In this document: positions 19,130-63,550 of the stretch, piece after piece
Numbering within the stretch: position 1 is the first letter of the stretch
Layout of the letters: each line of letters begins with the position of its first letter
Origin: Eledone cirrhosa
Taxonomy: Eukaryota
DNA: 64,000 nucleotides
Direction: 5' to 3'
Assembly (NCBI GenBank): GCA_964016885.1
Contig: OZ024740.1
Coordinates: 89,218,001 to 89,282,000, forward strand
Position numbers and translations under genes: made by a program
Notes under the pieces: generated by a model
What the model saw: only the letters and a program-made list of their open reading frames with translations
The model's database searches: none
Told to the model about the DNA's origin: nothing

Positions 19130-19452
19130 GTAATAATAATACATTTGAAGACTAAAATCCAAAGATCTTTTCCCGTTCTTTGCCACGAACCAAAGAAAGT
19201 ATCGTCTTCCTGTCTTCCTCTGGTTGCAACGTTTTTTGAAATATTCACTTCTGCGTCCACAGATTGACTTTGTTAGTTTCAGAAGGTCCCGTTAAGGGTG
19301 AAAGCAGCGATTCTTTGCTTAAACTTTAATCTGTTATTTTAATAAATTAAAAAAAAAATATATATATAAGCTTTCACCGTATTTTCGACTAAAGAAATTT
19401 CTAGCCTGATAGTGGGTTTATAACAATCGGAGAAATGGAAAAAGATGAGTGT

Positions 19453-19523
19453 TGCCGTACATGGGAGTCGAACCCACATTTTTGGTTATCCAGACCACTG
19501 TGCTACCATTACACCAATACACA
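19453..19523 (-). ncRNA. tRNA-like cloverleaf (not a canonical tRNA gene)
   Basis: A-box TGGTGTAATGG, D stem GTGT/GCAC, arm TGGT-CTGGATA-ACCA, T arm GTGGG-TTCGACT-CCCAT, imperfect acceptor stem, TTTTT downstream. Confidence 0.75.
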
Positions 19524-19813
19524 TCCCATCTCCTTGCATTCGAATTGGAAGCTATGAACTTAGCAAGTGAATGATAAACAAGCAAATTATAAACGTAAAC
19601 ATGTAAGTATGTTTTTGAAACGGTGCACGAGTTTGAAATTAGAAATTAGAAATTATAAGCTTTCACCGTATTTTATTTAAGCTATCAGTGTTACCAGGTG
19701 TAACTCTGACAGAAATGTTCATTCATAATGAAGAATGTAATCTACAAGAATTTGCTTGTTTATCATTCACTTGCTAAGTTCATAGCTTGTAATTCGAATG
19801 GAAGGAGATGGGA

Positions 19814-19883
19814 TGTGTATTGGTGTAATGGTAGCACAGTGGTCTGGATAACCAAATATGTGGTTCGACTCCCATGTACGGCA
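19814..19883 (+). ncRNA. tRNA-like cloverleaf, tandem copy 1
   Basis: Same structure; 1-nt deletion at the T stem. Confidence 0.7.
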
Positions 19884-20102
19884 ACAATCATCTTTTTCCA
19901 TTTCTCCGAGGGTTATAAACCCCACTATCATCCTAGAAATGTATTTAGTCTAAAATACGGTGAAACCTCATCATTTCTAATTTCTAATTTCAAACTCGCG
20001 CATCGTTTCAAAAACATACTTACATGTTTACGTTTATAATTTGCTTGTTTATCATTCACTTGCTAAGTTCATAGCTTCTAATTCGAATGGAAGGAGATGG
20101 GA

Positions 20103-20173
20103 TGTGTATTGGTGTAATGGTAGCACAGTGGTCTGAATAACCAAAGATTTGGGTTCGACTCCCATGTTCGGCA
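20103..20173 (+). ncRNA. tRNA-like cloverleaf, tandem copy 2
   Basis: Same structure; loop CTGAATA; intact B-box GGTTCGACTCC. Confidence 0.75.
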
Positions 20174-20338
20174 ACACTCATCTTTTTCCATTTCTCCGAG
20201 GGTTATAAACCCCACTATCAGGCTAGACATTTCTTTAGTCTAAAATACGGTGAAAGCTTATAATTTCTAATTTCTAATTTCAAACTCGCGCACCGTTTCA
20301 AAAACATACTTACATGTTTACGTTTATAATTTGCTTGT

Positions 20339-20384
<46 letters not shown>

Positions 20385-25625: not shown

Positions 25626-25700
<75 letters not shown>

Positions 25701-25702
<2 letters not shown>

Positions 25703-26991
25703 GAAAAATGTAAAATACGAAAATTATAGTAATTAGCTTACTTACTTATATTCCTCTCCAAATAATTAGTTTCTGAAAGGGAATATACATAGTCTCCAAA
25801 TGGAGACCATGGAGAAAAATGTTCGTCATCAGAGAGTTATTCTCAGCTAAGATACCTGGCGATGCGCGGACACAGGGAACTTATACAAAAATATTCAGTG
25901 GATGGAAAGTAGCAAGCGGGGCTAAATTCCAAGACACTGTAAAAATTACTGCATTCTTGTTCGGTGGCAAATTCAAAAGAATCAATCACGTGACATCGAG
26001 GTTAATCAGTGAGGAGTGGGTGTTAAAAAGACAGTAGCCAGGCTGTTACTATGAACTATAGTAGTAATTTTGTCAAATTTTTGCTCAACAAAATAATTTG
26101 GAGATAATTATAAAGAATTAGTATATCTACCAACATATATATATATACAGATGTATACCTATGCAAGCAAATATATAGGTTTTGTCTTAGTAACCTTGTG
26201 GTTCAATGCAAGGGGATGCAGGACAATTATATGAAAAACGTAAAATAAGAAAATTAAAGTAATTAGCTTACTTACTTAAATTTCACTCCAACCAATTCGC
26301 TTCTGAAAGGGAATATACATAGTCTCCAAATGGAGATGATGGAGAAACCTTTTCGTCATTAGAGAGTCATTCTCAGCTAAGATACCTGGCGATACGGGGA
26401 CACAGTGAACTTATACAAACATATTCAGTGGATGGAAAAGTATATGTTGGTAGATATACTAATTCTTTATAATTACCTCCAAATTATTTTGTTGAGCAAA
26501 ATTTTGCCAAAATTACTACTATAGTTCATAGTAACAGCTTGGCTACTGTCTTTTTAACACCCCACTCCTCACTGATTAACCTCGATGTCACGTGATTGAT
26601 TCCCTTGAATTTGCCACCGAACAAGAAGGCAGTGGTTTTTTCAGTGTCTTTGAATTTAGTTCTCGCTTGCACTTTTCCATCCACTGAATATTTTTGTATA
26701 TGGTCCCTGTGTCCGCCTATCGCCAAGTATCTTAGCTGAGAATGACTCCCTTATGACGAAAAGGTTTCTCCATGATCTCCATTTGGAGACTATGTATATT
26801 CCCTTTCAGAAACTAATTGGTTGGAGTGAAATTTAAGTGAGTAAGCTAATTACTATAATTTTCTTATTTTACGATTTTCATATAATTGTTCTGCATCCCC
26901 TTGCATTGAACCACAAAGTTACTAAGACAAAACCTATATATTTGCTTGCATAGGCATACATCTGCATATATATGTTGGTAAATATACTAAT

Positions 26992-26992
<1 letters not shown>
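25701..26992. mobile_element. 530-bp hammerhead-containing unit: 1.4 tandem copies plus an inverted permuted copy (retrozyme-like / non-autonomous PLE)
   Basis: Unit starts at 25701 and 26231. Inverted copy 26441-26992 has 24-bp terminal redundancy. Hammerheads at 25756-25836 (-), ~26285-26366 (-) and 26745-26827 (+). (TA)n on both flanks. Confidence 0.85.
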
Positions 26993-27066
<74 letters not shown>

Positions 27067-27068
<2 letters not shown>

Positions 27069-27635
27069 AAACTACTCCAGAGAACCATATACTAAAATAT
27101 ATACAGTATATCCTCTCCCAATCAGCATAATCAACTACACAAACAATCAATTAAACAAGGCTATAAGATTAAAAGGCACCTATGAAGAAATAATATATAA
27201 ATAAATGATAGCTATTTATCCGTGATCAACAGCCACAAAATATTTACCCAGTATTTCTAATAGCTCGTGGAAATCGATTAGATATATCGCCAACCATACA
27301 CAAGTAGGTACAAAATCAAAGTTAAAAGAAAAAAAAGAAACATAATTTTGGTATGCTTATATACATTTTTTCTTCTAACTTTGATTTTGTACATAATTGT
27401 GTATGGTTGGCGATATATCTAATCGATTTCCACGAGCTATTAGAAATAGGGGGTAAATATTATGTGGCTGTTGCTCGCGGATAAATAGCTATTGTTCATT
27501 TATCTATTATTTCTTCATAGGTGCCTTTTAATCTTATAGCCTTGTTTAATTGATTTTTTGTGTGGTTGATTATGCTGATTGGGAGAGGAAATACTATATA
27601 TATTTTATCAAATGATTCTATGACGTACTTTCTTG
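27067..27635. repeat. Inverted repeat, ~270-bp arms with ~28-bp spacer
   Basis: 27067-27337 is the reverse complement of 27366-27635, with scattered substitutions. Confidence 0.9.
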
Positions 27636-27749
27636 CATATTGCTCTGATTGTTGACTATTTAAATAAATAATTCGTCATTGAGCCACATGATGGTTGCCA
27701 AAAACACATATATATATATATCTATGGCTCTGTCTAGTTTATGTATATG

Positions 27750-27821
<72 letters not shown>

Positions 27822-27944
27822 GGATGTGAGTTTTATTGTAGTACAATAAAGCAATGCAGATATCGGATAAGAAGCACTCTACAATTTGTAGGACTGGAGT
27901 ATACATAATATATAAGATCTAAAGATGGTTAAATGAGTTCCATG

Positions 27945-28015
27945 TATTTTATTATGCGCATTTCAAAAACAAATATCATCATGCAATAACATTTGTGTTT
28001 TCATCAGATAAAATA
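27945..28015 (-). ncRNA. Intact type I hammerhead motif
   Basis: Minus strand TATTTTAT-CTGATGA-[long stem II]-GAAAT GCGC ATA-ATAAAATA; 8-bp stem I, palindromic ATGCGCAT stem III. Confidence 0.85.
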
Positions 28016-29375
28016 GGACATGATATGAAGGTTAAAAACACTTGTGGATAGTGCAGTTTTAAATCAACATATGAAAAGTATTTTTAGATTGATGTGTGAT
28101 ATTGGGTAAAAAAAAATGGTTGAGGGGGGGGGAGATGAAAAAGAGGAGGATATGAGAGTAAAAGGTGGAGGGGGAGGAGTATAATGAGGAAGGATGAGAT
28201 AGGAGGAGAGATGGCTGATAGAGAGAGGGAGATAGTTTTTATAACTGAGAAAAATATATTGTTTTACATAGAGAGGTTGAAAAACCGTTGGAAGATAATG
28301 TATAAATTAAAATAATTTGAAAATTAACGAAGAGAAAAATAATGTAAAGTTAAGGTTTGTATATTGAAGGGTTTAATAATATGTGCCATGAAAAGAAATT
28401 GTTAATATGTATTAAGAATAATATTTAAGGGTTTAATAATATCTGCGATGGAAAGAAAATGTTAATATGTATTAAGAATAATTTTAAGGGTTTAATAATA
28501 TGTGCGATGGAAAGAAAATGTTGATATCTATTATTAAAAAAACAGAAGTAATGTAAGTAAGGATATATTGTGAGATGAGCATGAATAAGTTAGATGAAAG
28601 GGAGAAAAAAATAATGAATAGAGGATGAATAATCTACCGTCAAAAAAATGTTTATGTTTACGAAGGATTTATTCAAGGTGATATAAAGTAAGAATATAGT
28701 GTATTGTGTAATAATTGTGTAATAATTATTACACAATACACTATATTCTTACTTTATATCACCTTGAAAAAATCCTTCGTAAACATAAACATATTTTTTG
28801 ACGTTAGATTATTCATCCTCTATTCATTATTTTTTCTCACTTTCATCTAACTTATTCATGCTCATCTCACAATATATCCTTACTTACATTACTTCTGTTT
28901 TTTTAATAATACATATCAACATTTTCTTTCCCTCGCACATATTATTAAACCCTTAAATATTATTCTTAATACATATTAACAATTTCTTTTCATCGCACAT
29001 ATTATTAAACCCTTCAATATACAAACCTTATCTTTACGTTATTTTTCTCTTCGTTAATTTTCAAATTATTTTAATTTATACATTATCTTCCAACGGTTTT
29101 TCAACCTCTCTATGTAAAACAATATATTTTTCTCAGTTATAAAAGCTATCTCTCTCTCTCTATCAGCCATCTCTCCTCCTATCTCATCCTTCCTCATTAT
29201 ACTCCTCCCCCTCCACTTTTTACTCTCATCTCCTCCTCTTTTTCATCCTTTCCACCCACCCCCCTCAACAATTTTTTTCTCCCCAATATCACACATCAAT
29301 CTAAAACTACTTTTCATATGTTGATTTAAAACTGCACTATCCACAAGTGTTTTTAACTTTCATATCATGTCCTCC

Positions 29376-29446
29376 TATTTTATCTGATGAAAACACAAAT
29401 GTTATTGCATGATGATATTTGTTTTTGAAATGCACATAATAAAATA
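29376..29446 (+). ncRNA. Type I hammerhead motif (mirror copy)
   Basis: Same as 27945-28015 but loop III is GCAC. Confidence 0.8.
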
Positions 29447-29476
29447 CATGGAACTCATTTAACCATCTTTTGATCT

Positions 29477-29545
<69 letters not shown>

Positions 29546-40600: not shown

Positions 40601-40959
40601 ATATTGCTTGTCATTTTGCATTGTTATTGCATTATTGGTTTTGTTTTATTTTCTTTTTGTGTTTTGCTAAGGTAGGTTATTGACATTTGAGGATCTACTT
40701 ATAAATTCATGAGCCGTTGCCAAACCGTTGTTTTAATTCTATGTTTAAAAAAGTCACTATATGATCAACCACATTTAGTAGTAGATTATATGGTGATTCT
40801 CATATTGTTCTGCTGCAGATTATCATCTTCATGAGAAATCGTTTTTTTTTTTGTTTCAATGTGCATGTTGTGATATTTAGTTGTGCTATTTAGTTTTGGT
40901 TTATGTTTTAGTGTTTACTATAAATCGTTTTCCATCCATTAATGCTTTGAGTATATTAC

Positions 40960-42195
40960 TGGGGTAGTTGTCATCAAAAGAGAATTCTTCGCATTGAAAA
41001 GGGTGATTAGAATAGCGTACATTAGATTTAGTAAGGCTTTATCAACATAGAACAAATAGCGTAGAATGGGTACTGCTTAGAAAATTAAACGAGGTACTTT
41101 TTAAAGGCATTGCGATCAACGTGCTTGCGGTGAGACTGGCCCTCGACCAATTCCTCAACGCAAAACACGATGGCTGCGAGGTAAGAGATACGGCGCGTAC
41201 TCTCATACACGAGGGGAACAAAGCCGTTAGATGGGACCAAGTGGAGGAGGCGCGACGTGACAACAAAGCCATGTTCCGGTCTTTGGAGGAACACGACGGG
41301 TAGATGTAACTCGATCCTGGGCAAATATGTGCGGCTTTTCAGCGGCACTTCGCTCAGATGTTCTGACGTAGCCGCGGGCCGGATCGCGTGTTGGACATTA
41401 GTGCCTACCTCGACGGTCTGTTGCAGCTTTTTAACACTGAGACGGAAGATGTGAAAAGCCAATAACTGCCGCTGAAATATTAGAGGCAATTATTAGCTGC
41501 ATGATGGGTAGGTTGTCTGGTTTGGATGGTTTGACCTACGATGGTTTGACCTACGAGCTTTACCTGGATATGCCAGACTTGTTCAGCGACATCTTGCCGG
41601 TCATCTGCTGCTACTGGCAGCAGAACGGCAGAATCCCCAGCTCTGTGATCCGAGGACTGTTGGTGCTGCTGAGAAAGGACCTCAACAAGGGGGATAACAG
41701 AGATATGTTCAAGCCCCCAAAACGGTAGAACGCAGAGTTAGACATTCTGCCCAAGGTTTTAGCAATGAGGTTGGCGCTCATCGTCGGGAATCTGGTGGGA
41801 GAGGTGCTTGCTTGCTCCATTAAAGACAGAACCATCCATGACAACCTCCACATCATGCGATTCATCATATAGAATGTAGGAAAGGAAACTGGCTTGGATA
41901 GGCCCATGATCAATTTATATCAGTCGAATGTTTTCGATAGCGTCGACCATTGGTTTTCTAGCGGTGTTCCTGATTGCGGGTGGTATTGCGACCGTTTTCA
42001 GAGACTGGTTCGCTGCTATGCACAGGGACAACTTGGATATTTACCTTTCGAAATCGTTCAACATCATGCTCCCTGTCATCCAAGGATGTCCCCTCTCATC
42101 ATTGTTGTATGTTTTGACACTCGAGCAATTGTAGTTCAAACTGGAAATGTTGCCGGGCGTTCCGCACGAAATGGAATGCAGGAGAACCGTGCCAC
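40960..42195 (+). mobile_element. Decayed Tx1/L1-clade ORF2 fragment
   Basis: Colinear with ~60630-61865 (LALDQFLNAKHDGC, GLDGLTYELY, QGCPLSSLLYVLTLE); many stops. Confidence 0.92.
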
Positions 42196-42875
42196 TTTAT
42201 GGCAACGTTGTTCATCCAGTAAAAATACATCCATGCCTTATAACAATGGTGGGAGTATTACTGGAGCGGTGGTGTTTCCTCGTAGCATTTCCTTGATGGC
42301 TACTTGGTCGATCCGTATATGGTAACGTGTGGTTGAATGGGACACAAAATAATGAACTGTGTACACTATATTTAGTAAAACACACATTGTAGTAGAAAAA
42401 AGTAAACGGTTATGTTTTAACCTCGTGCGACGAAATAAAATAGAGCTTGTACTGCTGTTGTAATAAAACACAACAAAGAAACCTGCCGTAGTCTAAGAAA
42501 TAGGTAGATATGGCTGAATGCCTAGACCAAACATTAGGTTTCCAAAGGACCGGATGTTATTATTAAAATCTTATTAAAGGAGAAAAATAATAAACAACGG
42601 CTTACAATACCTTAGTGGAGCACATATTTCAGTAGGGACACGAATATAAAAAAAAAAGGAATATAAAGGGAAGATGTTAAATAAGGTTATGTGTTTACGT
42701 CGTGCGATGAGAGTGAGAATAGAGTGGATTCTACTGTTCATAATAAACAACAACAATGAAACGTTCCGCAGAAAAAGAGATAAGAGAAGTGGCTGAATGC
42801 CTTGAGCAAAGACTGGACTTCTAACGTAATATGGTAATATTAAGATCTTAGAAAAATAGAATATCATATTATTGT

Positions 42876-50904: not shown

Positions 50905-51820
50905 GCCAGCAAATGGTACTTGAAAATAAAAACCAGTTGTTGGCAATTGAGAAAAGTGTCTGACCTAAGCCCTTTCAACCTCGTCCACCATACAACCTCT
51001 TTCGCCATAGCTATCACACAGAGGAAAACCGCCTCTCCTTCGTTTTTGAAGTGGGGAAGCGGTTTGCTCGTGACAATGTCCGCGGTGGTCAACCGGATTG
51101 GTCCCACCCGCGACAGTAGTCGTTCCACATAGCCACACAGGTCAGCAACGCCAGGGCAGTGTACGAATGCCTGTGCGACGGTTTCCTCGTCACGCTCGCA
51201 TCTCGGACAGATCTTCTTCGAGGGGTCCCTACCCGGGCGGCCGTGGGTGTAGAGTTTGTCCCGAAAGGGTAGAGCTCCTCGGTAGCACTGCCAAGCCAGG
51301 GACTTTTGGAAGTTGTCTATCGGTCCAGGGCCAAACGTCTAACCGAACAGACTGGCTAGCTCGTCTTCCTCCATGCCCAGAGCCTCTCCGAGAGCGTCGT
51401 CGCACTTGCTGCCCAGCAACCCTCTATATAATGTTGAAGTTGAGTCCCCACTGATTGCCGGATCCGCTTGCCTGATGACCGTGAGCCCCTGAGCACATAC
51501 AATGTGTCAGTCGCCCACTTTTCACGGTCTTTGCTTGACCCAGGATTGCAGCTCGGTGAGTGAGACGAGTCTCGGAAAAGCTCGCCTCACAAGAGGGGCC
51601 CACACGGGCTGACCGGTTGGGAATACCTGGAGGTGCCGTAGCCTTAATGCGTGCCTACGTATCGTAAGACACGGCATCCCCAGCCCTCAGTTCGAAGGGT
51701 GTTGACAGCAGATGGATCTTCTCCCCAAAGGGGCCCGCAGCTTCCAAAAAGGAATCAGAAGAGCGCGCGCTCCTTTTTGACGAGCGTTTTCGCTAGGCAA
51801 GGCACGACGGTCAAGCGGTA
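50905..51820 (-). mobile_element. Decayed Tx1/L1-clade ORF2 3' fragment, older subfamily
   Basis: EGEAVFLCVIAMAKEVVWWTRLKGL is homologous to the ORF2 C-terminus; colinear with ~62225-63120. Confidence 0.88.
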
Positions 51821-52171: not shown

Positions 52172-52221
52172 TAACAGATTAACGTTTAAGCAAAGAATCG
52201 CTACTTTCACCCTTAACGGGA

Positions 52222-52225
<4 letters not shown>

Positions 52226-52295
<70 letters not shown>

Positions 52296-52331
52296 TTATT
52301 ATTATTATTATTATTCTTCTTCTTCTTCTTC

Positions 52332-52394
<63 letters not shown>
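52226..52394. repeat. Compound (CTT)n/(ATT)n microsatellite
   Basis: Directly visible. Confidence 0.97.
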
Positions 52395-52396
<2 letters not shown>

Positions 52397-52810
52397 CAGC
52401 CGAAATTCATGACGCCCTTGTCGGCTGCATTAGTGCCTATGTTTTTTAGTGTCCCATTCAATAGTGACTCAAGCTTTCCTATGTCATTTCTCATTTCCCC
52501 GATTTGCCCACTCAGTCGCTTCTTCCACCACGGCTCTGCTCTTTCTTGTCTGTTGTTTCCTCTCGCTTTTATACCGAGTAGTTTCCTCACCGTATTTGCT
52601 GTTGCTTTGAGGATATTGTTGCACTGGTGAAGGCTCCTCGCCTCAAGGTATGGGATGACTTTGTTTACCTTAGCTGTTGTTTCTTTTAACTTTTTCCTGT
52701 CTACAAATCTTAGGTTCATAGGTCTCCCACTATCATTGTTCAATTCATCTACCACTAAATTTAGGATGTCAACCGAATCTTGTCCTAGCTCGTCAGCATT
52801 CATCTCCTAT
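52395..52810 (-). mobile_element. Probable Dong/R4 N-terminal ORF fragment between (AAT)n tracts
   Basis: LRFVDRKKLKETTAKVNKVI...EPWWKKRLSGQIGEMRNDIGKLE resembles the region upstream of RT in R4/Dong ORFs. Confidence 0.7.
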
Positions 52811-52813
52811 TTA

Positions 52814-52875
<62 letters not shown>

Positions 52876-52876
<1 letters not shown>

Positions 52877-54103
52877 TCTTTTAGTCTCAGTCATTGATGT
52901 TAGTTAACTGGAAAGTGTGTTGAGATGAATATCAAGCCACTACCTGCAGCCTCAGATATTGAGGACGTATCGGAGAGTTCTTGCTGTTCCCAGCAAGCAT
53001 GCCTTTTGAAGCGTTCCATAAAGCGTGAAGGGGCCAATTTTCTTTAACCATCTCTGGAAACTTTTTGAGATAGTCCCTAGGGCGTCTATGACAATCGGGA
53101 TCACTTTGACTTCATTGCAGTTCCAAATCCTTTTTACCTCCCACTTTAAGTACTGGTATCGGTTAATTTTCTCCCTCTCCTTCACTTGCACTCTCGTGTC
53201 AAATGGGCAGGCGACATCCACAATCAGGCACGATCTTTTTTCTTTGTCCAAAACCACCAGGTCAGGTCTATTGTGTTCCAGTTTCTTGTCCGTCTGTATC
53301 CTAAAATCCCACAGCACCTTCACCTGATCGTTTTCTATCATCGCCTCTGGCTTATGCTCATACCACTTCTCAGATTGTGGTAAATTTTTTACTTTGCACA
53401 GGTGCCAGTGGATCACCCTGCCCATCACATCATGTCTCCAGCCCTTATAGTGAGTCTGGGCTAGGTGTTTACACTCGGATACAATGTGATCCACAGTCTC
53501 CTCTCTCTCTTCACAGATCCTGCACAGTGGGCTAGCCTCCTCCTTGTAAATGTGGTGTTTCAACCACTTCGTTTTGAGGGCCTGCTCCTGCGCAGCCATT
53601 AACATTCCTTCTGTATCCTTTTTAAGGTCTCCTCTTTTCAACCAGTTCCATGTTTGTGGATCTCTAAATTCAGTTTTCTCAAAGAAGGTACTATGAAGGG
53701 ATTTTTCCTGAAGGCTGCTCTTTCTCCTTGATGTTATTTACTCCTTGGACATCCCCTGGCTTATTGTCCCCTCTTTCAGTGCAGCTCTGAGCATTGGCTC
53801 CTTGCTATCAGTCACGTATTTGTGTAGGTTGTTTTTCTCCATCTGAACACAGTCATCTATGCTGATAAGACCTCTTCCACCCTCAGATCTCCTTAAGTAG
53901 AGTCTATCGACATCACTCCTCTTGTGGAACATATTGTAGATAGTCAATAGCTCCCTAGCCTTCCTATCCATTTCTTTTTGTTCAGCGACATTCCATCTCA
54001 GAATTTCCGCACTATACCTAATAATAGACACAGCTCGGGAATTTACTGCACTTATGGCATTCCTACTGTTCAGATGTGACTTTAATACGCTCCTTACTCT
54101 TAC
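52876..54103 (-). mobile_element. 5'-truncated Dong/R4-clade non-LTR retrotransposon (copy A)
   Basis: Post-RT domain plus CCHC (CRIC..HIVSEC), RHD and PD..D..K restriction-like endonuclease. Single nonsense codon at 53738. (AAT)n on both sides (52815-52875, 54104-54184). Confidence 0.92.
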
Positions 54104-54184
<81 letters not shown>

Positions 54185-54185
<1 letters not shown>

Positions 54186-54240
54186 GTCTCAGTCATTGAT
54201 GTTATTTAACTATAAAGTTTGTTGAAATGAATATCAAGCC
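54185..54240 (-). mobile_element. Dong/R4 3' terminal fragment (copy B, left part)
   Basis: Matches 52883-52938. Confidence 0.85.
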
Positions 54241-54738
54241 GGGAAGGGCAGGCAGTTTTTATCTGTCTGGTGGCCATGGCGAAAGAGATAGTATGCTGGA
54301 CACGTTTGAAAGGGCTGAAGACGAGCACTGACCTTTTCGGTGATGCCTTGATTAACTTTTTCAAATTTCATTTGTCAAGGAAAATCAGAGTAGAGAGGGA
54401 AGTGCTCTTTTCCCAGCATTTTGTTGAAAGATGGGTGAGAGAAGCAAGTATGGCCCGAGTGAATGGGTCTACTCTGAGTATTTGTCTGTAAATTAAAGGT
54501 GGAAAACTGGGAGAGGGCACTGGCCCTGGTGCTCAGGGTCACTGTGGCCTTTTAATGGGCTTTCGCCACAAATGTTCCTCGGAAGTCTCCCCCCTATTGA
54601 GGAATTTTTCGTTGTTATTTTTTATTACATCCTCTGTTTTTTTTTACACGCAGAAATACCCATTTGTACCGTCCTGTATTGTCCTGTACTGTCCTTAATG
54701 TCTACTTTATGTAAACCCCATGTGGTTAATAAAGAAAA

Positions 54739-54739
<1 letters not shown>
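54237..54739 (+). mobile_element. Tx1 3' fragment (ORF2 end plus 3'UTR)
   Basis: Colinear with 62982-63500; ends AATAAAGAAAAC then (ATT)n 54740-54781. Confidence 0.95.
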
Positions 54740-54781
<42 letters not shown>

Positions 54782-56933
54782 GGCGACCTACGTAGTAAAT
54801 CGTATCATCGTGAGCTCCGCAAATGTTTGTTATTTCCGTTTGTTAAATATTGCCATTTATGGAAAATTGTATTGTTAACTGTTTATAAGCACACATACAT
54901 AGTTTTCCGAAAAGGACACCCAAAAAGTTGGGGCCTTGTGCCCAAAATTTTAACTTTTATTATTACCAAAAAATTTCTTTGAAAAAAAAATGGCTAATTC
55001 ACCTCTGCAACAAGCAGCTGAAAGCCTTCCTCACAAATTAACACCTCACACCGACACCACCATTGTAAATGTTACTACGTTTGCCAACACAAAAAAAAAT
55101 ATAAGCAGTAGCAATATTTTAAATTTGTCTCAGGCAGACATTCATTTCTCGCCATTACCAATAACTGCAGGTGTTAAAGCCTCCACCACCACCGCCACCA
55201 CCGCGACAATCACCACCGCCACCACCACCGCGACAACAAAAACAAAAGAAGAAAAAAATAAATTAACTCGTGATGTCGAAATGAAATCAAGCAAAATGGA
55301 CTCCTCCGCACCAAAGACGACTGACGTCACCACAACCACAACTGAAACTTAAATTAATATTAACACAAATAACGATAGCAACAACAACAACAATGACATT
55401 ATAAAACCGACCCTCAGTTTCGCCATAGTAGCAAAACAGTTCGAAGCATTCACGGTAACTCAGGAGGATTTAGAAAATGCCAAACAAATGGAAAAGAAAG
55501 ATGTGTACAGGGTCAGCCTCACCCCCCACCTAATAAAATGGAGCATCGGCGCCTATGCACCGTGTCGTATAGAACAATAAATGTAAAATCGCACCGAGTG
55601 GAACGGGCATCCGAGTCCCAAATCCAAAAAGCTTTGGGACATGTGTGGGCAAGAAAAACCCACATCAGACGTGGGCAAAAGTATGGAACCGTGGATGTGT
55701 TCTTTGAAACACCAGAGGAGGCTAGAGAACACTCCATGGCCCCATTAAAAAGTGACGACTTCACACTCGTCCCAAGCTATTGTGGCCAGAGACTCGTAAA
55801 GATCAGGGTGACCCACTTTCCACCGGCCATCGAAATTCCCTGGCTAATAGCGGCTGTCCTCGCCGGCATCGAAGCCAACACGAAAATAATAGCAATAGCA
55901 AAAGAAAAGCAGGAAAACTGGTCCGGATCTGGGATGGAGCTCCTGATCCAAGCGGACCAAAAAAGCATTGAGGAGATCCCAGAGGTAATAGACCTCACTG
56001 ACGGCAGCCACCTCACGGTATTTGTCGAGGGCAGAAGACCTAGGTGTGTCGTTTGGGTGAAGGAACCCACCTAAGGGCTTTCTGCCCTCAGGCTAAAAGC
56101 TTGAGGCCACCTCTCCTACCCACCCCAGTGACACAACCATCAACACCACCAGTAGCAGAGATGGCAACAACAACTGTAGCAGCAACAACAGAAGCAACTA
56201 TAACAGCAACAACCCCAGCAACAGTAGCAAAACCAACACCACTACCATCACCAGCTAAACCAACACCACCACCACCCAACGCTTCAGAAGTAGCACCAGC
56301 GCCTACACCATCCACCACACCACAACCAAAACTAACGGCTGTGGAGGATTTTCCACTCCCCGGCCTATCACCACTGGAGACAGATTGTGACGACGAGTAG
56401 TGGGAAACGATATCCGGAAAAATAAAAATAAACCAAAAAAGAAAAAAATTCTCTTCCTTCCCCCTCCAAAAACAAAATACAGAGGGAAACAAATAAATTA
56501 AGAAACAAAAAAGTTAGGACAGATATGCCACCATCCACACATACAAATCACTCGCATCACACAGAAAACGTACATGACACTAAAACAAAAATTCCCCAAA
56601 GACATCGGAGACTTCCGACAAGCACTCTCAAGGAGGATTTATAAGGACATCCTTTCTGATGAGGCCACAAGCAGTGAAAAGGATGGAAAAACCGTCATTC
56701 CCCTACGAGAAGTAAGGTAAGTGGTCTTTCCCATCTTTTCCACTCCTTTTCAACATGACCTCACTCAGAATAGGCAGCATAAATGCGCGTGGCTTGGGGT
56801 CGTCATGGAAGCAGGGCCACCTGCTCAACGACCTCAAATCACTAAAGATAGATGTAGTGGCCATCAGCGAGACCAGAATCTCCGAAGCACAGGCTTTCGC
56901 ACCAATCTTCGGCGGCTACGATGTGTACGCATC
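54782..56933 (+). mobile_element. Tx1 5' part: 5'UTR, disrupted variant ORF1, start of ORF2
   Basis: CTVSYRTINVKSHRVERASESQIQKALG..LVPSYCGQ is homologous to ORF1 at 57685. ORF2 start MTSLRIGSINARG at 56755. Truncated at 56933. Confidence 0.92.
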
Positions 56934-57444
56934 ATGTCATGTCTCCAGCCCTTATAGTGAGTCTGGGCTAGGTGTTTACACTCGGATACAATGTGAGCCA
57001 CAGTCTCCTCTCTCTCCCCACAGATCCTGCATATTGGGCTAAACTCCTCCTTGTAAATATGGTGTTTCAGCCACTTCGTTTTGAGGGCCTGGTCTTGCGC
57101 AGCCATTAGCATTCCTTCTGTAGCCTTTTTAATGTCTCCTCTTCTCAACAAGTTCCATGTCTGTGGATCTCTGAATTCCGTTTTCTCAAATGAAGACTTT
57201 TTCATGAAGGTTGCTCTTTCTCCTTGTTGTTATTTCCTCCTTGGACATCCCCTGGTCTATTGTCCTCTCCTTCAGTACAATTCTGAGCATTGGCCCCCTA
57301 CTCTCCGTCACGTATTTGTGTAGGTTGTTTTTCTCCATCTAAACACAGTCCTCTATGCTGATAAGACCTCTTCCAGGTTCAGATCTCCTTAAGTAGAGTC
57401 TATCGACATCACTCCTTCTGTGGAACATGTTGTAGATAGTCAAT
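56930..57444 (-). mobile_element. Dong/R4 internal fragment (copy B, right part)
   Basis: Colinear with 53423-53948; its 5' end abuts (AAT)n 57445-57471. Confidence 0.9.
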
Positions 57445-57684
57445 ATTATTATTATTATTATTATTATTATTGAATGCCATGGTTGACGGAGGCTCGGCTC
57501 TGTAAGGTATAGTAATTTTTAACCGTTAAAACAATTGTAAATTGTTTAAAACTTGAACCAAATTGTTGATAAAGACACCCTCCTCCTCGTGAGAGGGGTC
57601 TTTCTGTCCGTTATTTGGCCCTTCGGGGTTAAATAACCAGTTATTGGGGTTTTGTACCCAAAATTTCATTTTAAACAAAAAAAC

Positions 57685-59781
57685 ATGGCTACGAAAAAGA
57701 AATTTCATACGTCACTCCCACTCATTCCGTCTTCTTCTTCCTCAATCATCACTACAGCAGAGAGAAGATTGTCTCTCTCCCTCCCTTCTTTAAATGTGTC
57801 TCTCTCCCTCCCTTCTCTTTCGCAAGCGACGAAAGAAAAGAAAAGTCTCGTGCAAAGCGTGCAAGGTTTCTCCACGACGACGACGACAGCGACGAAACAG
57901 GTGTGCGGGAAATACGAAAACCCAGTTCATTCGTCTGATGTCAGGAATAATAGCAGTAGCAGCCGTAATAACAACAGCAACAGTGACAATGAAAACAACA
58001 GTAGCAGCCGCAACAGCATCACCAGCAGCATAAACAACAACAGCATTAGCAGCAGCAACACCAACAACAACCACAGCAACAGCGGCGGAGGCAGTAGTCG
58101 TAGTACCTGCAGCAACAACAAAAGTACCAGCAGCTCTGACGACAACAACAACAGCAGAGAAAAACCAATCTCATTTGCAGGTATTGCGAAAAACTTGGAA
58201 ACAATCCTCATAAAAAATGAGGAATTAGAGGAAGCGAAGAAGATGGTGACAAAGAACGGACACCGAGCAATCTGCAAGGCAGCGAAAAATTTTTTCGAAA
58301 CCCAAGAGCACTGTACGGTCACGTACCGTACAGTAAGTACAAAATCCCGTAGGGTGGAAAGAGCCACAGAGGCCCAAATACAAAAAGCCTTGGGGTCTGT
58401 GTGGCAGCGGAAAACGCACATCACCCGAGGCAAAAAATACGCCACCGTAGACGTACTTTTTGCCACACCCCAGGAGGCAAAGGCCCAATCAGTAGTGACC
58501 CTAAGGAGCGAGGAAATGGTGTTGGTGCCCTCCTACTGCGGGCAAAAAATTGTGAGGGTCAAACTGACACACGTCCCCCCCGGAATGACCCCTTCTTGGC
58601 TGGCCGCGTCTGTCCTCGTCGGAATCGAGGACAAAACAACTGTACTGCAAGTACAGAAAAAAGTAAGAGAAGATTGGGTCGGCTCCTCCATTGAGATGCT
58701 AATCCAAACCAACCAGGAGTGCATCGAAGCTATCCCGGATGTGATAGACTTCGATAACGGCACTCAACTGCCCATAAGTGTTGAGGGCAAACGCCCGAAA
58801 TGCTTTCGCTGTGGATCGAAGACTCACCTCATGGCCTTCTGCAACGAGAAGACCCTGAGAAAGGAGAAAACCCCCCTCCTTCCGAATCCGGCTCCACGGC
58901 TACCAGCAACAGGACAAGCGGCAACCAGGAACGATAGGTCCGTGGCACCCATACCCACTCCACGGAAATCAAAGACAGCAGCAGCAGTGGAAATATTAAC
59001 AACAACAACAGCAATACCAAATGCAGCTGCAACAGAGACTCCAGTGCAAACATCACCAACAACAACAAGTGAACGAGTGGAGCTGGTACCCCTCCCCGAC
59101 CTTACAGAATCAGACATGGAGTGTGAGGTGGGAGAGGGATGGCAAAAGGTCGCAAGAAGGCACAAACGCAGAAGCAGCGCATCGTCGCCTTTGAAAAGGG
59201 AGGAAAGAAATGAGAAAAGGGTAAAGTCTACTGCAAAGAGACCCACAGCAGCAACACCACCAACACCATCACCACCCACACCAGCACCACCATCACCACC
59301 GGCGACAACCCCACCGCCAACAACACCTTCAACAACACCACCACAAGCACCAACATCGCAAACACAACAACAAAACACACACACCCAGCAACAACGACAA
59401 GAAAATAGCAGAACCACACCCCACCCCCAGAAAAACAAATGCACGGCAATAAACACACACAACAAGAAACTAATGACTTACATAATTGAACACACAGACA
59501 TTTTACAACAGGACTACATAATACCAGCACCAATCAAAACGCCAACTAACATAAGACTGCTAAAAATAGCACAGAAACAATACACAAACATTAAAACGAA
59601 ATTCCCCAACGCAGTTGGTGATTTCAGGGACCTAGGAGGAACCATTAATCGAAGAGTATATTCAGACATTCTCTTAGAAGAGCCGACGACCAGCCGAAGG
59701 GACGATTCAACGGTCCCTTCACCAGACGATCAAGTGAAAAGGGATGTAAAAACCATCCCTCCTCTACCAAAAGTACGGTAA
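57685..59781 (+). CDS. ORF1p: nucleic-acid-binding protein with CCHC zinc knuckle
   Basis: Open frame, first ATG at 57685. S/N-rich N-terminus, RRM-like central region, CFRCGSKTHLMAFC (Cx2Cx4Hx4C), P/T-rich linker. Confidence 0.9.
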   Translation: MATKKKFHTSLPLIPSSSSSIITTAERRLSLSLPSLNVSLSLPSLSQATKEKKSLVQSVQGFSTTTTTATKQVCGKYENPVHSSDVRNNSSSSRNNNSNSDNENNSSSRNSITSSINNNSISSSNTNNNHSNSGGGSSRSTCSNNKSTSSSDDNNNSREKPISFAGIAKNLETILIKNEELEEAKKMVTKNGHRAICKAAKNFFETQEHCTVTYRTVSTKSRRVERATEAQIQKALGSVWQRKTHITRGKKYATVDVLFATPQEAKAQSVVTLRSEEMVLVPSYCGQKIVRVKLTHVPPGMTPSWLAASVLVGIEDKTTVLQVQKKVREDWVGSSIEMLIQTNQECIEAIPDVIDFDNGTQLPISVEGKRPKCFRCGSKTHLMAFCNEKTLRKEKTPLLPNPAPRLPATGQAATRNDRSVAPIPTPRKSKTAAAVEILTTTTAIPNAAATETPVQTSPTTTSERVELVPLPDLTESDMECEVGEGWQKVARRHKRRSSASSPLKREERNEKRVKSTAKRPTAATPPTPSPPTPAPPSPPATTPPPTTPSTTPPQAPTSQTQQQNTHTQQQRQENSRTTPHPQKNKCTAINTHNKKLMTYIIEHTDILQQDYIIPAPIKTPTNIRLLKIAQKQYTNIKTKFPNAVGDFRDLGGTINRRVYSDILLEEPTTSRRDDSTVPSPDDQVKRDVKTIPPLPKVR

Positions 59782-59816
59782 GTGGTCTTTCCCATCTTTT
59801 CCACTCTATTTTAAAC

Positions 59817-62800
59817 ATGACCTCACTCAGAATAGGCAGCATAAATGCGCGTGGCTTGGGGTCGTCATGGAAGCAGGGTCACCTGCTCAACGACCTCAGG
59901 TCACTAAACAGAGATGTAGTGGCCATCAGCGAGACCAGAATCTCCGAAGCACGGGCCTTCGCACCGATCTTCGGCGGCTACGATGTGTACGCATCTCCCA
60001 GCCGTCCTGGATCGGGTGGAGGAGTTGCTGTGCTTTTTCGGAGAGGTTTGGATCTCGCCATACGGGCCATCTTCCTGGACCCAGAGGGTAAGCTGGTGGT
60101 GCTGGACGTGACCAGCGGAGACGGGCAAGCTTTCAGGCTAGTGGCCGTCTATGCCCCGACAGGAGCAGGGCGGCCTGATTTCTTCCGGCGTCTGGAGACC
60201 TTTCTTGGAACGTCCCGCTCTTTAGTGTTAGTGGGCGACTGGAACGGGATCTTAGATGCACGCTGGGACTGTGTGGGATTAGCGGATAGGGGTGGAGGGT
60301 GCAAGAGCCTCACCAACCTGCTCAGGCGTTTTGAACTGTCTGACAGGTACCGATTGGATTTCCCGAATGTGCCAATGTGGACTTGGACAAACCGCATAGG
60401 GTCATCCAGATCATATCTAGATAGAGTATTTTGTAGGGAAATAGATAGGTCTAGCATAGGCTGTCCACAATTCAAGATAGTCAGCTACACGGACCACAAA
60501 TTCGTGACCTGTGTGCTTGACTTAGATAGGCTTCATAGACGAGGACCCAGCTACTGGAAGCTAAACGCGTCCTTACCAGCTCGCAAGGCCTACAGAGACC
60601 GGATTAGCGAACTAGTTAAGCGGGCGTTGACGGGGGCCATCGTCAACAACAAGTGGTGGTTTGCTCTGAAAAGAGCGATTAGAATAGAATCGATTAGGTT
60701 TAGTAAGGCTTTAGCAATAGAGAAAAATAGAGTAGAGGGAGAACTAGTTAGAAAATTAGACGAGGCGCTTAGCAAAGGCATTGCGACCGACGTGCTTGCG
60801 GCGAAATTGGCCCTTGACCAATTCTTCAATGCAAAGCACGAAGGCTGCGTTGTCAGAGCTAGGGTGCGTGCTCTCAGACACGAGGGGACGAAAGCCGTTC
60901 AATGGGCCCGAGTGGCGGAGGCGCGTCGTGGCAACAAAGCCACGATCCGGTCTTTGGTGGACCACGACGGGCGCATGCTACTCGATCCCGGGCAAATGTG
61001 TGAAGCTTTTCAGCGACACTTCGCTCAGCTGTTCGGGGGCAGCGGGGGGCCGGGTAGAGGGATGGACTTTAGTGTCTACCTCGACGGACTGCCGCGGCTC
61101 TCGGCCACTGAGGCGAAGTGTTGCGAAAAGCCGATAACAGCCGCTGAAGTACGGGAGGCAATGACTGGCTGCACAAGGGGTAAATCGCCTGGTTTGGATG
61201 GTCTGCCCTATGAACTTTACGTACAGATGCCAGACTTGTTCGGAGGCCTCTTGGCGGACGTCTACTGCAACTGGCAACAGAACGGGAGAATTCCCAGTTC
61301 TGTGAGCCGAGGAGCGGTGGCACTGCTGAGAAAGGATCCGAACAAGGGGGATAACATAGACAATTTCCGGCCCATAACTCTGCTAAACACAGAGTTTAAG
61401 ATTTTGGCCAAGGTGCTAGCAAAGAGGTTGGCGCTTGTCGTTGGTGGTCTGGTGGGAGAGGCGCAGACATGCGCCATTCCCGACAGATCCATCCACGACA
61501 ACCTCCACCTCATGCGATACATCGTAGAGAGGGTAGCTAGGGAACCTGGCACGGGTGGGTCCTTGATCAATTTAGATCAGTCGAAAGCTTTCGATAGGGT
61601 CGACCATCGTTACCTAGCGGCAGTCCTGAGGGCGGCTGGCTTTGGGCCCGTCTTCAGAGGCTGGATCGCTGCCATGCACAGCGACATCTGCTCTGTGGTG
61701 AGAGTGAACGGTCACCTGTCGGAACCGTTCAACATCATGCGCTCGGTCCGCCAAGGATGTCCCCTCTCGTCCCTCTTGTACGTATTGACTCTCGAGCCAT
61801 TACTGCACAAACTGGAGACGTTGAGGGGAGTCCCGCGCGAACTAGGATGCGGAAGATCCGTGTCAGCATATGCGGACGATGTCACCGTAGTGGTGTCGAA
61901 CGCCAAACACATCGAGGCGATCGGCACTACACTAAGAGAATACGAAGCGGTGACAGGAGCAATGATCAACCAGGAAAAGTCAGTGGGCCTGCAGCTCGGC
62001 ACCTGGAGAGGCAGGTCCATGCCGTCCAACAGCGTCGTCGGGCGCTGGACGGACGGACCGGTTAAATTGCTAGGGGTCTGTTTCGGTCCGGACCTCCAGA
62101 CGGACAAAAACTGGGACGAGGTGACGAGCAGGGTGGCTTCTCTCACCCAGAAATGGGCGGAGAGGAAGCTATCCCTGAAAGGTCGAGCGGAGGTGGCTAA
62201 CGCGTACATCGCGTCTGTCATCTGCTACCGCCTAACCGTCGTACCTTGTCCTAAGCCTCGCCTGACTGCGCTGGAGCGTTTGCTCTTTCGCTTTTTGTGG
62301 AAGGGACGTGCTCCGATGGTCAGGCGGTCCATCTGTTGTCAACACCCGCTACGTGGAGGGCTGGGCATGCCGTGGCTGATGATGCGCAGGCACGCGCTCA
62401 GGCTACGACATCTCCACCTCTTCCTCGACGGTGATCAGGTGTGGTCGCCGTTTGCTAGACGCGTTTTTCCCCAGCTCGTTTCCTTGACGGAGCTGCAGTC
62501 CTGGGTCAAGCGAAGACCGAGAGGGAGCGCCTGGAGACTGGAATGTCTTCAGGCGCTCACAGCCCTCGACCAATCGGGCAATGTGATCGGTGGAAACTCC
62601 ACCTCGGCGTTCTATAGAGGATTAGTGGAGGGGAAGAGCGACGACGTACTTGGGGAAACTCTAGGCGTCGACGAAAATCAACTAGCCAATCTCTTCGGAA
62701 GAACTTTCGGGCCAGGGCCTATGGACAACTTCCAGAAATCTCTGGCCTGGCAGTGCTACCGAGGAGCCTTGCCAGTTCGGGATAAACTCTACAGGCATGG

Positions 62801-63236
62801 AGGTGCCGTCAGCCGGGCATGTCCGAGATGCGCGCAGGGCGACGAAACCGTCCTGCACGCACTCGTCCAGTGTCCGAAAATTGCTGACTTGTGGGTTTAT
62901 GTCGAACACCTGCTGTCGCGTTTAGGACGGATCCAGCTATCATCTGAGTCTATCGTGAGGATTGCCCCGCCCTCCTCCTTTAGCCGGGAAGGGCAGGCAG
63001 TTTTTATCTGTCTGGTGGCCATGGCGAAAGAGATAGTATGGTGGACACGTTTGAAAGGGCTGAAGACGAGCACTTACCTCTTCGGTGATGCTCTGATTGA
63101 CTTTTTCAAATTTCATTTGAAAAGGAAAATCAGAGTAGAGAAGGAAGTGCTCTCTTCCCAGCATTTTGTTGAAAGATGGGTGAGAGAAGCAAGAATGGCC
63201 CGAGTGAATGGGCCGACTCTGAGTATATATCTGTAA
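59817..63236 (+). CDS. ORF2p: APE endonuclease, reverse transcriptase, C-terminal Cys/His domain (1139 aa)
   Basis: SINARG, ISET, VYAP, GDWN, YLDR, TDH (APE). PGLDGL, FRPITLLN, DQSKAFDRV, QGCPLS, YADD (RT). CPRC..ETVLHALVQC. Confidence 0.97.
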   Translation: MTSLRIGSINARGLGSSWKQGHLLNDLRSLNRDVVAISETRISEARAFAPIFGGYDVYASPSRPGSGGGVAVLFRRGLDLAIRAIFLDPEGKLVVLDVTSGDGQAFRLVAVYAPTGAGRPDFFRRLETFLGTSRSLVLVGDWNGILDARWDCVGLADRGGGCKSLTNLLRRFELSDRYRLDFPNVPMWTWTNRIGSSRSYLDRVFCREIDRSSIGCPQFKIVSYTDHKFVTCVLDLDRLHRRGPSYWKLNASLPARKAYRDRISELVKRALTGAIVNNKWWFALKRAIRIESIRFSKALAIEKNRVEGELVRKLDEALSKGIATDVLAAKLALDQFFNAKHEGCVVRARVRALRHEGTKAVQWARVAEARRGNKATIRSLVDHDGRMLLDPGQMCEAFQRHFAQLFGGSGGPGRGMDFSVYLDGLPRLSATEAKCCEKPITAAEVREAMTGCTRGKSPGLDGLPYELYVQMPDLFGGLLADVYCNWQQNGRIPSSVSRGAVALLRKDPNKGDNIDNFRPITLLNTEFKILAKVLAKRLALVVGGLVGEAQTCAIPDRSIHDNLHLMRYIVERVAREPGTGGSLINLDQSKAFDRVDHRYLAAVLRAAGFGPVFRGWIAAMHSDICSVVRVNGHLSEPFNIMRSVRQGCPLSSLLYVLTLEPLLHKLETLRGVPRELGCGRSVSAYADDVTVVVSNAKHIEAIGTTLREYEAVTGAMINQEKSVGLQLGTWRGRSMPSNSVVGRWTDGPVKLLGVCFGPDLQTDKNWDEVTSRVASLTQKWAERKLSLKGRAEVANAYIASVICYRLTVVPCPKPRLTALERLLFRFLWKGRAPMVRRSICCQHPLRGGLGMPWLMMRRHALRLRHLHLFLDGDQVWSPFARRVFPQLVSLTELQSWVKRRPRGSAWRLECLQALTALDQSGNVIGGNSTSAFYRGLVEGKSDDVLGETLGVDENQLANLFGRTFGPGPMDNFQKSLAWQCYRGALPVRDKLYRHGGAVSRACPRCAQGDETVLHALVQCPKIADLWVYVEHLLSRLGRIQLSSESIVRIAPPSSFSREGQAVFICLVAMAKEIVWWTRLKGLKTSTYLFGDALIDFFKFHLKRKIRVEKEVLSSQHFVERWVREARMARVNGPTLSIYL

Positions 63237-63498
63237 ACTAAAGGTGGAAAACTGGGAGAGGGCACTTGCCTTGGTGGTCAGGGTCATTGTGGCTTTTTAC
63301 TGGGCTTTCTCCACAAATGTCCCTCCGAAGTCTCCCCCCTATTGGGGAATTTTTTCATTGTTATTTTCATTGTTATTTTTGTTACATCCTCTGTTTTTGT
63401 TTTTTTTACACGCAGAAATGCCCATTTGTACCGTCCTGCATTGTCCTGCACTGTCCTTAATGTCTACTTTATGTAAACCCTTGTGGTTAATAAAGAAA

Positions 63499-63550
<52 letters not shown>

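Follow-up and report, generated by a model that had tools for sequence, protein, structure and literature searches.

Covarying long-range complementarity between the inter-ORF spacer and the 3′UTR of Tx1-like LINEs in Eledone cirrhosa and its possible role in masking splice signals

How the bicistronic RNAs of long interspersed nuclear elements (LINEs) set the amounts of the proteins encoded by their two open reading frames (ORFs), ORF1p and ORF2p, is an open question according to the accessible text of two studies (PMC3894237; PMC5381506). The closest described LINE systems are L1 and SART1, in which ORF2 is translated by termination-reinitiation on a bicistronic RNA with a short spacer, as in the element analyzed here. 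In contrast to this element, the structures described in the accessible parts of these reports are local, and these parts describe no pairing between spacer and 3′ untranslated region (3′UTR) (PMC5972666; PMC3894237; PMC5381506). For vertebrate L1s, the accessible text of one study reports that no shared spacer structure was found (PMC5381506). Our own literature search found no spacer-to-3′UTR pairing in LINEs, with most subscription papers and the supplements lying outside the search. Here we analyze a full-length Tx1-like LINE of family A1 located in a 64,000-nt stretch of the Eledone cirrhosa genome (assembly GCA_964016885.1, contig OZ024740.1, positions 89,218,001 to 89,282,000, forward strand). 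The whole stretch is hereafter called the window, and positions are counted from its first letter.

Spacer-3′UTR pairing in the window copy and in related families

The preliminary description of this DNA had noticed that two sequences of 23-24 nt, one in the spacer (59781-59804) and one at the start of the 3′UTR (63244-63266), are complementary. Both sequences are present at these positions and pair at −28.8 kcal/mol, and the complementarity is bigger than first described, with a core helix of 26 pairs (−40.7 kcal/mol) that begins on the G|GTAAGT motif containing the ORF1 stop (Table 1). The duplex energy also exceeds that of shuffled controls, as none of 300 dinucleotide-shuffled spacers matched it on the 3′UTR and none of 1000 shuffled UTRs did so; with the whole element as target, 4 of 300 shuffled spacers reached the duplex energy of the window copy. 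The same description had reported that both sequences are identical in a second subfamily (56720-56743 and 54499-54521). The letters are indeed identical, but they belong to two separate insertions rather than to one subfamily: a 3′ fragment at 54237-54737 sits upstream of the copy whose spacer was cited, and that copy ends at 56933. Because the cited stretches already share 90% and 92% identity with the full element, the 24-nt identity is weak evidence for the helix; in the copy at 54499, one extended-helix pair is broken, at position 54522. Rfam returned no match at the gathering score and two weak microRNA matches far under threshold.

Starting from diverged fragments, both in the window and in retrieved loci of the same genome, we reached further families. 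The ten representatives carrying spacer and 3′ end in cis are A1 (the window copy), A2 (L051), C1 (L036), C2 (L045), D1 (L056), D2 (L210), E (L167), F (L201), G (L192) and H (L205), where D2 and H are represented by one copy each and F by two. The nine families other than A1 reach down to ~60% amino-acid identity in ORF2 (D1 is 75% and C2 69% identical to A1), and the 61-nt windows of unrelated families are 48-76% identical to each other. In 10/10 families, pairing of the spacer with the ORF2-end/UTR window of the same family had a z of −3.4 to −6.6; 0/300 shuffles were as good, and this cognate window beat each of 171-178 other downstream windows. Out of 720 permutations, the cognate assignment ranked first in both of two six-family sets; in a nine-family set, 3 of 362,880 permutations reached it, and the paired fraction of the nine-family alignments was reached by 3 of 20,000 row permutations. 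The families being related, these counts are inflated and are not independent-event probabilities.

The nine-family alignments contain 30 column pairs common to at least four folds, and two-sided change was found in 11 of them. A synonymous change in the last ORF2 codon of D2 is matched at −1 of the AUG, a change in the second ORF2 codon of H is matched near the stop, and whole purine-containing stems are swapped on both arms between D1 and D2. A prediction written beforehand for the F spacer came true in part: no C4 run or GC occurs at the predicted place, yet the pairing has a z of −6.6. The long-range helix proposed from the window copy is backed by this covariation among related families of the same genome, and we are highly confident that it is a selected feature.

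It is very improbable that there is no functional helix and that the pairing simply reflects composition, with a spacer rich in pyrimidines and a UTR rich in purines. Non-cognate pairs also reach −22 to −57 kcal/mol, as composition alone would allow, but shuffles that keep the composition never reach the observed energy in the family windows, 11-17 purines on the spacer side are paired per family, and family-specific purines are matched by family-specific pyrimidines. As the D1/D2 stem exchange affects both arms, composition fails as an explanation and is already largely refuted.

In two-strand folds the pairing forms an irregular rod. One of its strands extends from the last ORF1 codons through spacer and AUG to the first codons of ORF2; the opposite strand is made up of the final codons of ORF2 together with the initial 35-95 nt of the 3′UTR. 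The family folds thus place the ORF1 stop, the ORF2 start and the ORF2 stop side by side, as had been suggested for the window copy. The A of the ORF2 AUG pairs with the last ORF2 codon in 9/9 families aligned, and this register is fixed despite changes in spacer length. When the whole 3.8-kb region was folded, the long-range pairs survived in A1 (47 pairs) and the rod was also kept in G (82 pairs), while the inner extension was missing from this fold of the window copy. A local hairpin is found in the first 60 nt of the 3′UTR at L036, L045, L192 and L205, with a stem that covaries between C and G. In the folds, this local hairpin excludes the outer part of the long helix and may act as a switch.

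Splice-signal motifs and the candidate facultative intron

Masking of splice signals in the spacer was one of five functions first suggested for the helix, beside ORF2 reinitiation, ribosome recycling, cis-preference and selection of full-length RNA. Conservation of the donor and stops matched to its phase lend this proposal support from sequence, and masking itself remains a putative function. The donor motif G|GT(A/G)(A/G)(G/A)T is located at the end of ORF1 in 10/10 representatives. The ORF1 stop lies at +2 of the donor in A1, A2, C1, C2, F and H and at +6 in D1, E and G, and the motif is partly unpaired in C2, D1, D2, G and H. Given these phase shifts and the partial unpairing, the donor motif appears to be kept independently of the stop codon and of the pairing. 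The A1 ORF1 end (59700-59777) looks like a chimera, E-like (L167) to ~59734 and followed by a 43-nt A2-like (L051) end, and the A1 donor phase is therefore shifted relative to E.

ORF2 ends with TAG, a candidate acceptor, in the eight non-A families and with TAA in family A. The donor bases, the bases preceding TAG and the G of TAG are paired in two-strand folds. With the donor joined to the ORF2 TAG in the true phase, C1, C2, D1, E, G and H each run into an in-frame stop 0-1 codons on, which means a stop within one codon in 6/7 families of known phase, whereas the wrong phases in the same six families run for 3-80 codons before a stop. Between C2 (phase 2) and its sister G (phase 1), a one-base difference after TAG fits the phase shift. 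The D2 junction reaches a stop after 0 or 2 codons by either phase.

For family A, a candidate replacement acceptor, consisting of a T-run followed by CAG, was found ~160-180 nt downstream in 79 of 85 3′ ends with TAA. At the corresponding site, the sister family E has CAC in 15 of 19 ends with TAG (4 were not matched), and one intermediate 3′ end carries TAG and CAG together. The A/E acceptor switch is a single evolutionary event, in the predicted direction.

Three other arrangements were rejected. The gaps between the ORF1 stop and the AUG measure 35, 34, 43, 42, 29, 32, 33 and 33 nt and occur in all three frames; readthrough or a fixed frameshift is ruled out because the gap frame varies among families. 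Fusion of ORF1 and ORF2 via a mini-intron of 36-53 nt, checked by hand, would be in frame in A1 and C2 and out of frame in D1, E and G. Finally, an acceptor late in the 3′UTR is not common to the families, as one was found in family A only; D2 has a TAG at +176.

The fixed register of the AUG could also mean that the helix chiefly governs ORF2 translation. The AUG would be buried and then opened by ribosomes finishing ORF1, coupling the two ORFs, and the helix would keep the ORF2 stop next to the ORF2 start, so that ribosomes are recycled or translation is shut off after a single round. This is in line with SART1, for which reinitiation at ORF2 and a downstream structure are described in the accessible text (PMC5972666). 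However, the AUG register follows equally from masking of the acceptor, and control of translation explains neither why the donor is kept in two phases nor why phase-matched stops follow the ORF2 TAG; we regard it as a rather unlikely main function. A role of the helix in reinitiation or ribosome recycling is possible, and by covering the ORF2 AUG the helix probably also dampens translation of ORF2.

We prefer the reading that ORF2 is a facultative intron whose splice sites would be masked by the helix, and put about even trust in it. More tentatively, the entire reverse transcriptase (RT) gene may lie in a facultative intron between two stop codons, with a covarying rod of 60-100 bp setting the ratio of ORF1-only to full-length RNA and gating the ORF2 start. 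U1 could bind the donor first because the donor would be transcribed 3.4 kb ahead of its partner arm, and the rod would close only once the 3′UTR is transcribed. As the end of ORF2 emerges, commitment of the spliceosome would race zipping of the helix. Spliced molecules would become short ORF1-only messages, while those that zip would keep their full length and, once exported, act as both ORF2 message and retrotransposition template.

The geometry of the two-strand and family folds would also permit the helix to promote ORF2 removal as an RNA bridge, in which donor and acceptor, 3.4 kb apart, are brought to within ~40 base pairs of each other. Both arms lie inside the candidate intron in family A, but in the TAG families the 3′ arm belongs for the most part to the exon downstream, and the donor bases themselves are paired (fully in A1, E and F), and we assign a distinctly small probability to this bridge. 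A similarly small chance, or a slightly smaller one, is given to the donor being an unspliced docking site for U1. Here U1 would guard the nascent RNA from early polyadenylation across ORF2 until the 3′ arm displaces it and permits 3′ end formation and export. The donor is conserved, the acceptor is weak and no spliced genomic copies were seen, all of which would fit; U1 plays this role in Arabidopsis EVD according to the accessible part of the report (PMC5580714), and the accessible text of another describes nuclear retention caused by intact 5′ splice-site motifs (PMC11629677). Nevertheless, docking of U1 predicts neither the phase-matched stops nor the replacement acceptor of family A. Translation control, the bridge and U1 docking are not mutually exclusive, and U1 docking can act alongside masking of a facultative intron.

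Several observations speak against masking of a facultative intron or against the underlying helix. In whole-region folds the helix is lost in D1 (3 pairs), and its outer part faces competition from local hairpins in the UTR. The cognate partner tops its row in only 6/10 families, close sisters cross-pair, and the prediction written beforehand for the E spacer was only half borne out in letters, its pairing being strong. On the side of splicing, F breaks the phase rule with 27 codons, the phase of D2 is uncertain (a single copy with a shifted frame), the candidate acceptor has a weak context and lies inside coding sequence, and the acceptor switch occurred only once. Two patterns covering most but not all junctions gave 0 matches to a spliced A1 genomic copy and 2 small local non-splice mutants beside 1,234 intact motifs, and none of the 69 A1 copies compared has a junction at the donor; trans-mobilisation may be too rare for this absence to count. 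One sequencing run presumed to be RNA covers neither arm, and none of the 15 listed of more than 1,000 joints lies at the donor, which weighs on neither side. An A-to-G excess, as editing would leave, was not found in the arms of 61 young copies (0/1,342 and 0/1,098 A sites).

As a measure of purifying selection within A1, variants shared among its copies number 0 in the 5′ arm and 0 in the core 3′ arm versus ~0.02-0.03 per site elsewhere; these counts are too few for significance, and the search pattern held some of the 5′ arm constant. A more distant set was assembled from 80 metagenome loci (22-53% best-segment identity), of which 17 whose long ORF2 is preceded by another ORF were picked by hand and 1 was dropped for its short UTR. 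No comparable pairing was detected in these 16 L1/Tx1-like elements; the lowest z was −3.2 in the borderline case L081 (2/200), followed by −2.1 in L097, and the others were null. The covarying complementarity is accordingly shown for this clade in this genome only. Relatives are known as proteins at 39-44% identity. G|GTGAGT occurs upstream of ORF2 in two of the distant loci, L082 (~1925-1935) and L104 (~3030), without detectable UTR pairing.

The host element and its surroundings

The window element has two ORFs, and its ORF2 encodes an APE endonuclease, an RT and a C-terminal zinc-binding region, as expected for the L1/Tx1 group; the closest relative of solved structure is L1 ORF2p (E 6e-53). 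The ORF1 translation contains CX2CX4HX4C, the CCHC knuckle of a Tx1-type ORF1, and a Pfam search of ORF1 matched no family. A CCHC knuckle in ORF1 is a trait of the Tx1 clade, and from such traits we take the element to be Tx1-like; the searches for relatives returned no named Tx1 reference. A first look at the 3-Gb genome yielded 26,133 candidates for the ORF2 N-terminus, and the A1 ORF1-end motif has 1,234 exact matches genome-wide. The 61 complete copies among the 69 compared show a median identity of 99.2% to the window copy; the A1 family is young and abundant in its genome.

The window copy and the D1 copy each have (ATT)n on both flanks, indicating for these two copies repeat-specific insertion, a further trait of the Tx1 clade. 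Kibi and Koshi belong to the Tx1 clade. They are likewise APE elements that target microsatellites, so that a LINE sits in a simple repeat, according to the accessible text (PMC3812793); here the targets are (ATT)n in families A and D, and (ATCT)n-like tails are found in C1, F, G and H. These (ATCT)n-like-tailed families (L036, L201, L192, L205) are often stacked in tandem at a single site. Copies of D1 are arrayed head to tail, repeating every ~5,840 bases (G000:C1:423371158-423418280), and 40/40 scored copies are 100% identical over 451 bases.

Elsewhere in the window, pieces of another LINE-like family, 52213-54196 and 56934-57445 (−), interleave with the Tx1-like copies, and one of them cuts the A2 copy short at 56933. 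Related families are also represented by older fragments at 40955-42272 (+) and 50910-51773 (−), the latter belonging to family C. A 734-amino-acid ORF at 1515-3719 (−) presumably represents the RT-RNase H-integrase part of a long terminal repeat (LTR) retrotransposon. Nested long inverted repeats are located at 25698-29491 and 19414-20342, with arms of 115-348 nt and 89-98% complementarity.

Table 1. Positions of the element, its helix arms and splice-signal motifs, and neighboring copies in the window
Feature	Position	Strand	Details	Basis
5′ arm of core helix	59777..59805	+	donor and spacer	duplex energy, pairing matrix, folds
3′ arm of core helix	63243..63270	+	start of 3′UTR	duplex energy, pairing matrix, folds
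Predicted outer extension	59764..59770	+	last ORF1 codons; partner 63271-63277	two-strand and whole-region folds
Partner of outer extension	63271..63277	+		two-strand and whole-region folds
Predicted inner extension	59815..59831	+	ORF2 AUG and first codons; partner 63218-63234	two-strand fold
Partner of inner extension	63218..63234	+	last ORF2 codons	two-strand folds
5′ splice-donor motif (putative donor)	59775..59783	+	cut after 59777; overlaps ORF1 stop 59779-59781	family comparison
Candidate replacement acceptor, family A	63390..63415	+	T-run then CAG; exon from 63416; joined ORF1 stop 63474-63476	3′-end comparison
Full-length Tx1-like LINE, family A1	57472..63500	+	(ATT)n runs on both flanks	sequence and ORFs
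ORF1	57685..59781	+	698 amino acids; CX2CX4HX4C knuckle	program ORF list; knuckle read from translation
ORF2	59817..63236	+	1139 amino acids; endonuclease, RT, zf-RVT	ORF list and domain search
AATAAA and 3′ end	63489..63500	+	followed by (ATT)n	sequence
Degenerate A2-type copy	54782..56933	+	spacer shared, ORF1 diverged; interrupted early in ORF2	sequence
5′-truncated family-A 3′ fragment	54237..54740	+	separate insertion	sequence

Comparison with known systems

As this LINE clade is very active and carries natural compensatory variants, the question of how ORF1p and ORF2p amounts are set becomes directly testable by swap mutants. The proposed splicing resembles the short gag RNA of Ty1/Copia elements, for which the accessible text on Arabidopsis EVD describes that a U1-type donor is conserved close to where the structural ORF ends (PMC5580714). 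A donor at this place, typical of copia elements, was found here in 10/10 families. In EVD, splicing yields a message for the structural protein only and the unspliced RNA is the full-length template (accessible part of PMC5580714), a division of labor that is only proposed for the window LINE. In contrast, EVD is an LTR element with a short intron coupled to early termination, and the accessible part of the report describes no long-range helix (PMC5580714); in the LINE, all of ORF2 would form the intron and the usual 3′ end would be kept.

The pairing itself resembles the PRTE-DRTE interaction of tombusviruses, which, in the accessible text, spans ~3.5 kb between RNA just after the stop of the first ORF and the 3′ end, controls polymerase expression and faces a competing local structure (PMC3234231). 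This interaction differs in that it drives stop-codon readthrough (accessible part of PMC3234231), which is excluded here by the gap frames. If the proposed mechanism is true, RNA structure would be one way in which a LINE produces plenty of ORF1p but little ORF2p, and a LINE would combine subgenomic splicing, so far a property of copia elements, with kilobase-range pairing, so far a property of plant RNA viruses. The system of the window LINE belongs to neither the copia type of subgenomic splicing nor the tombusvirus type.

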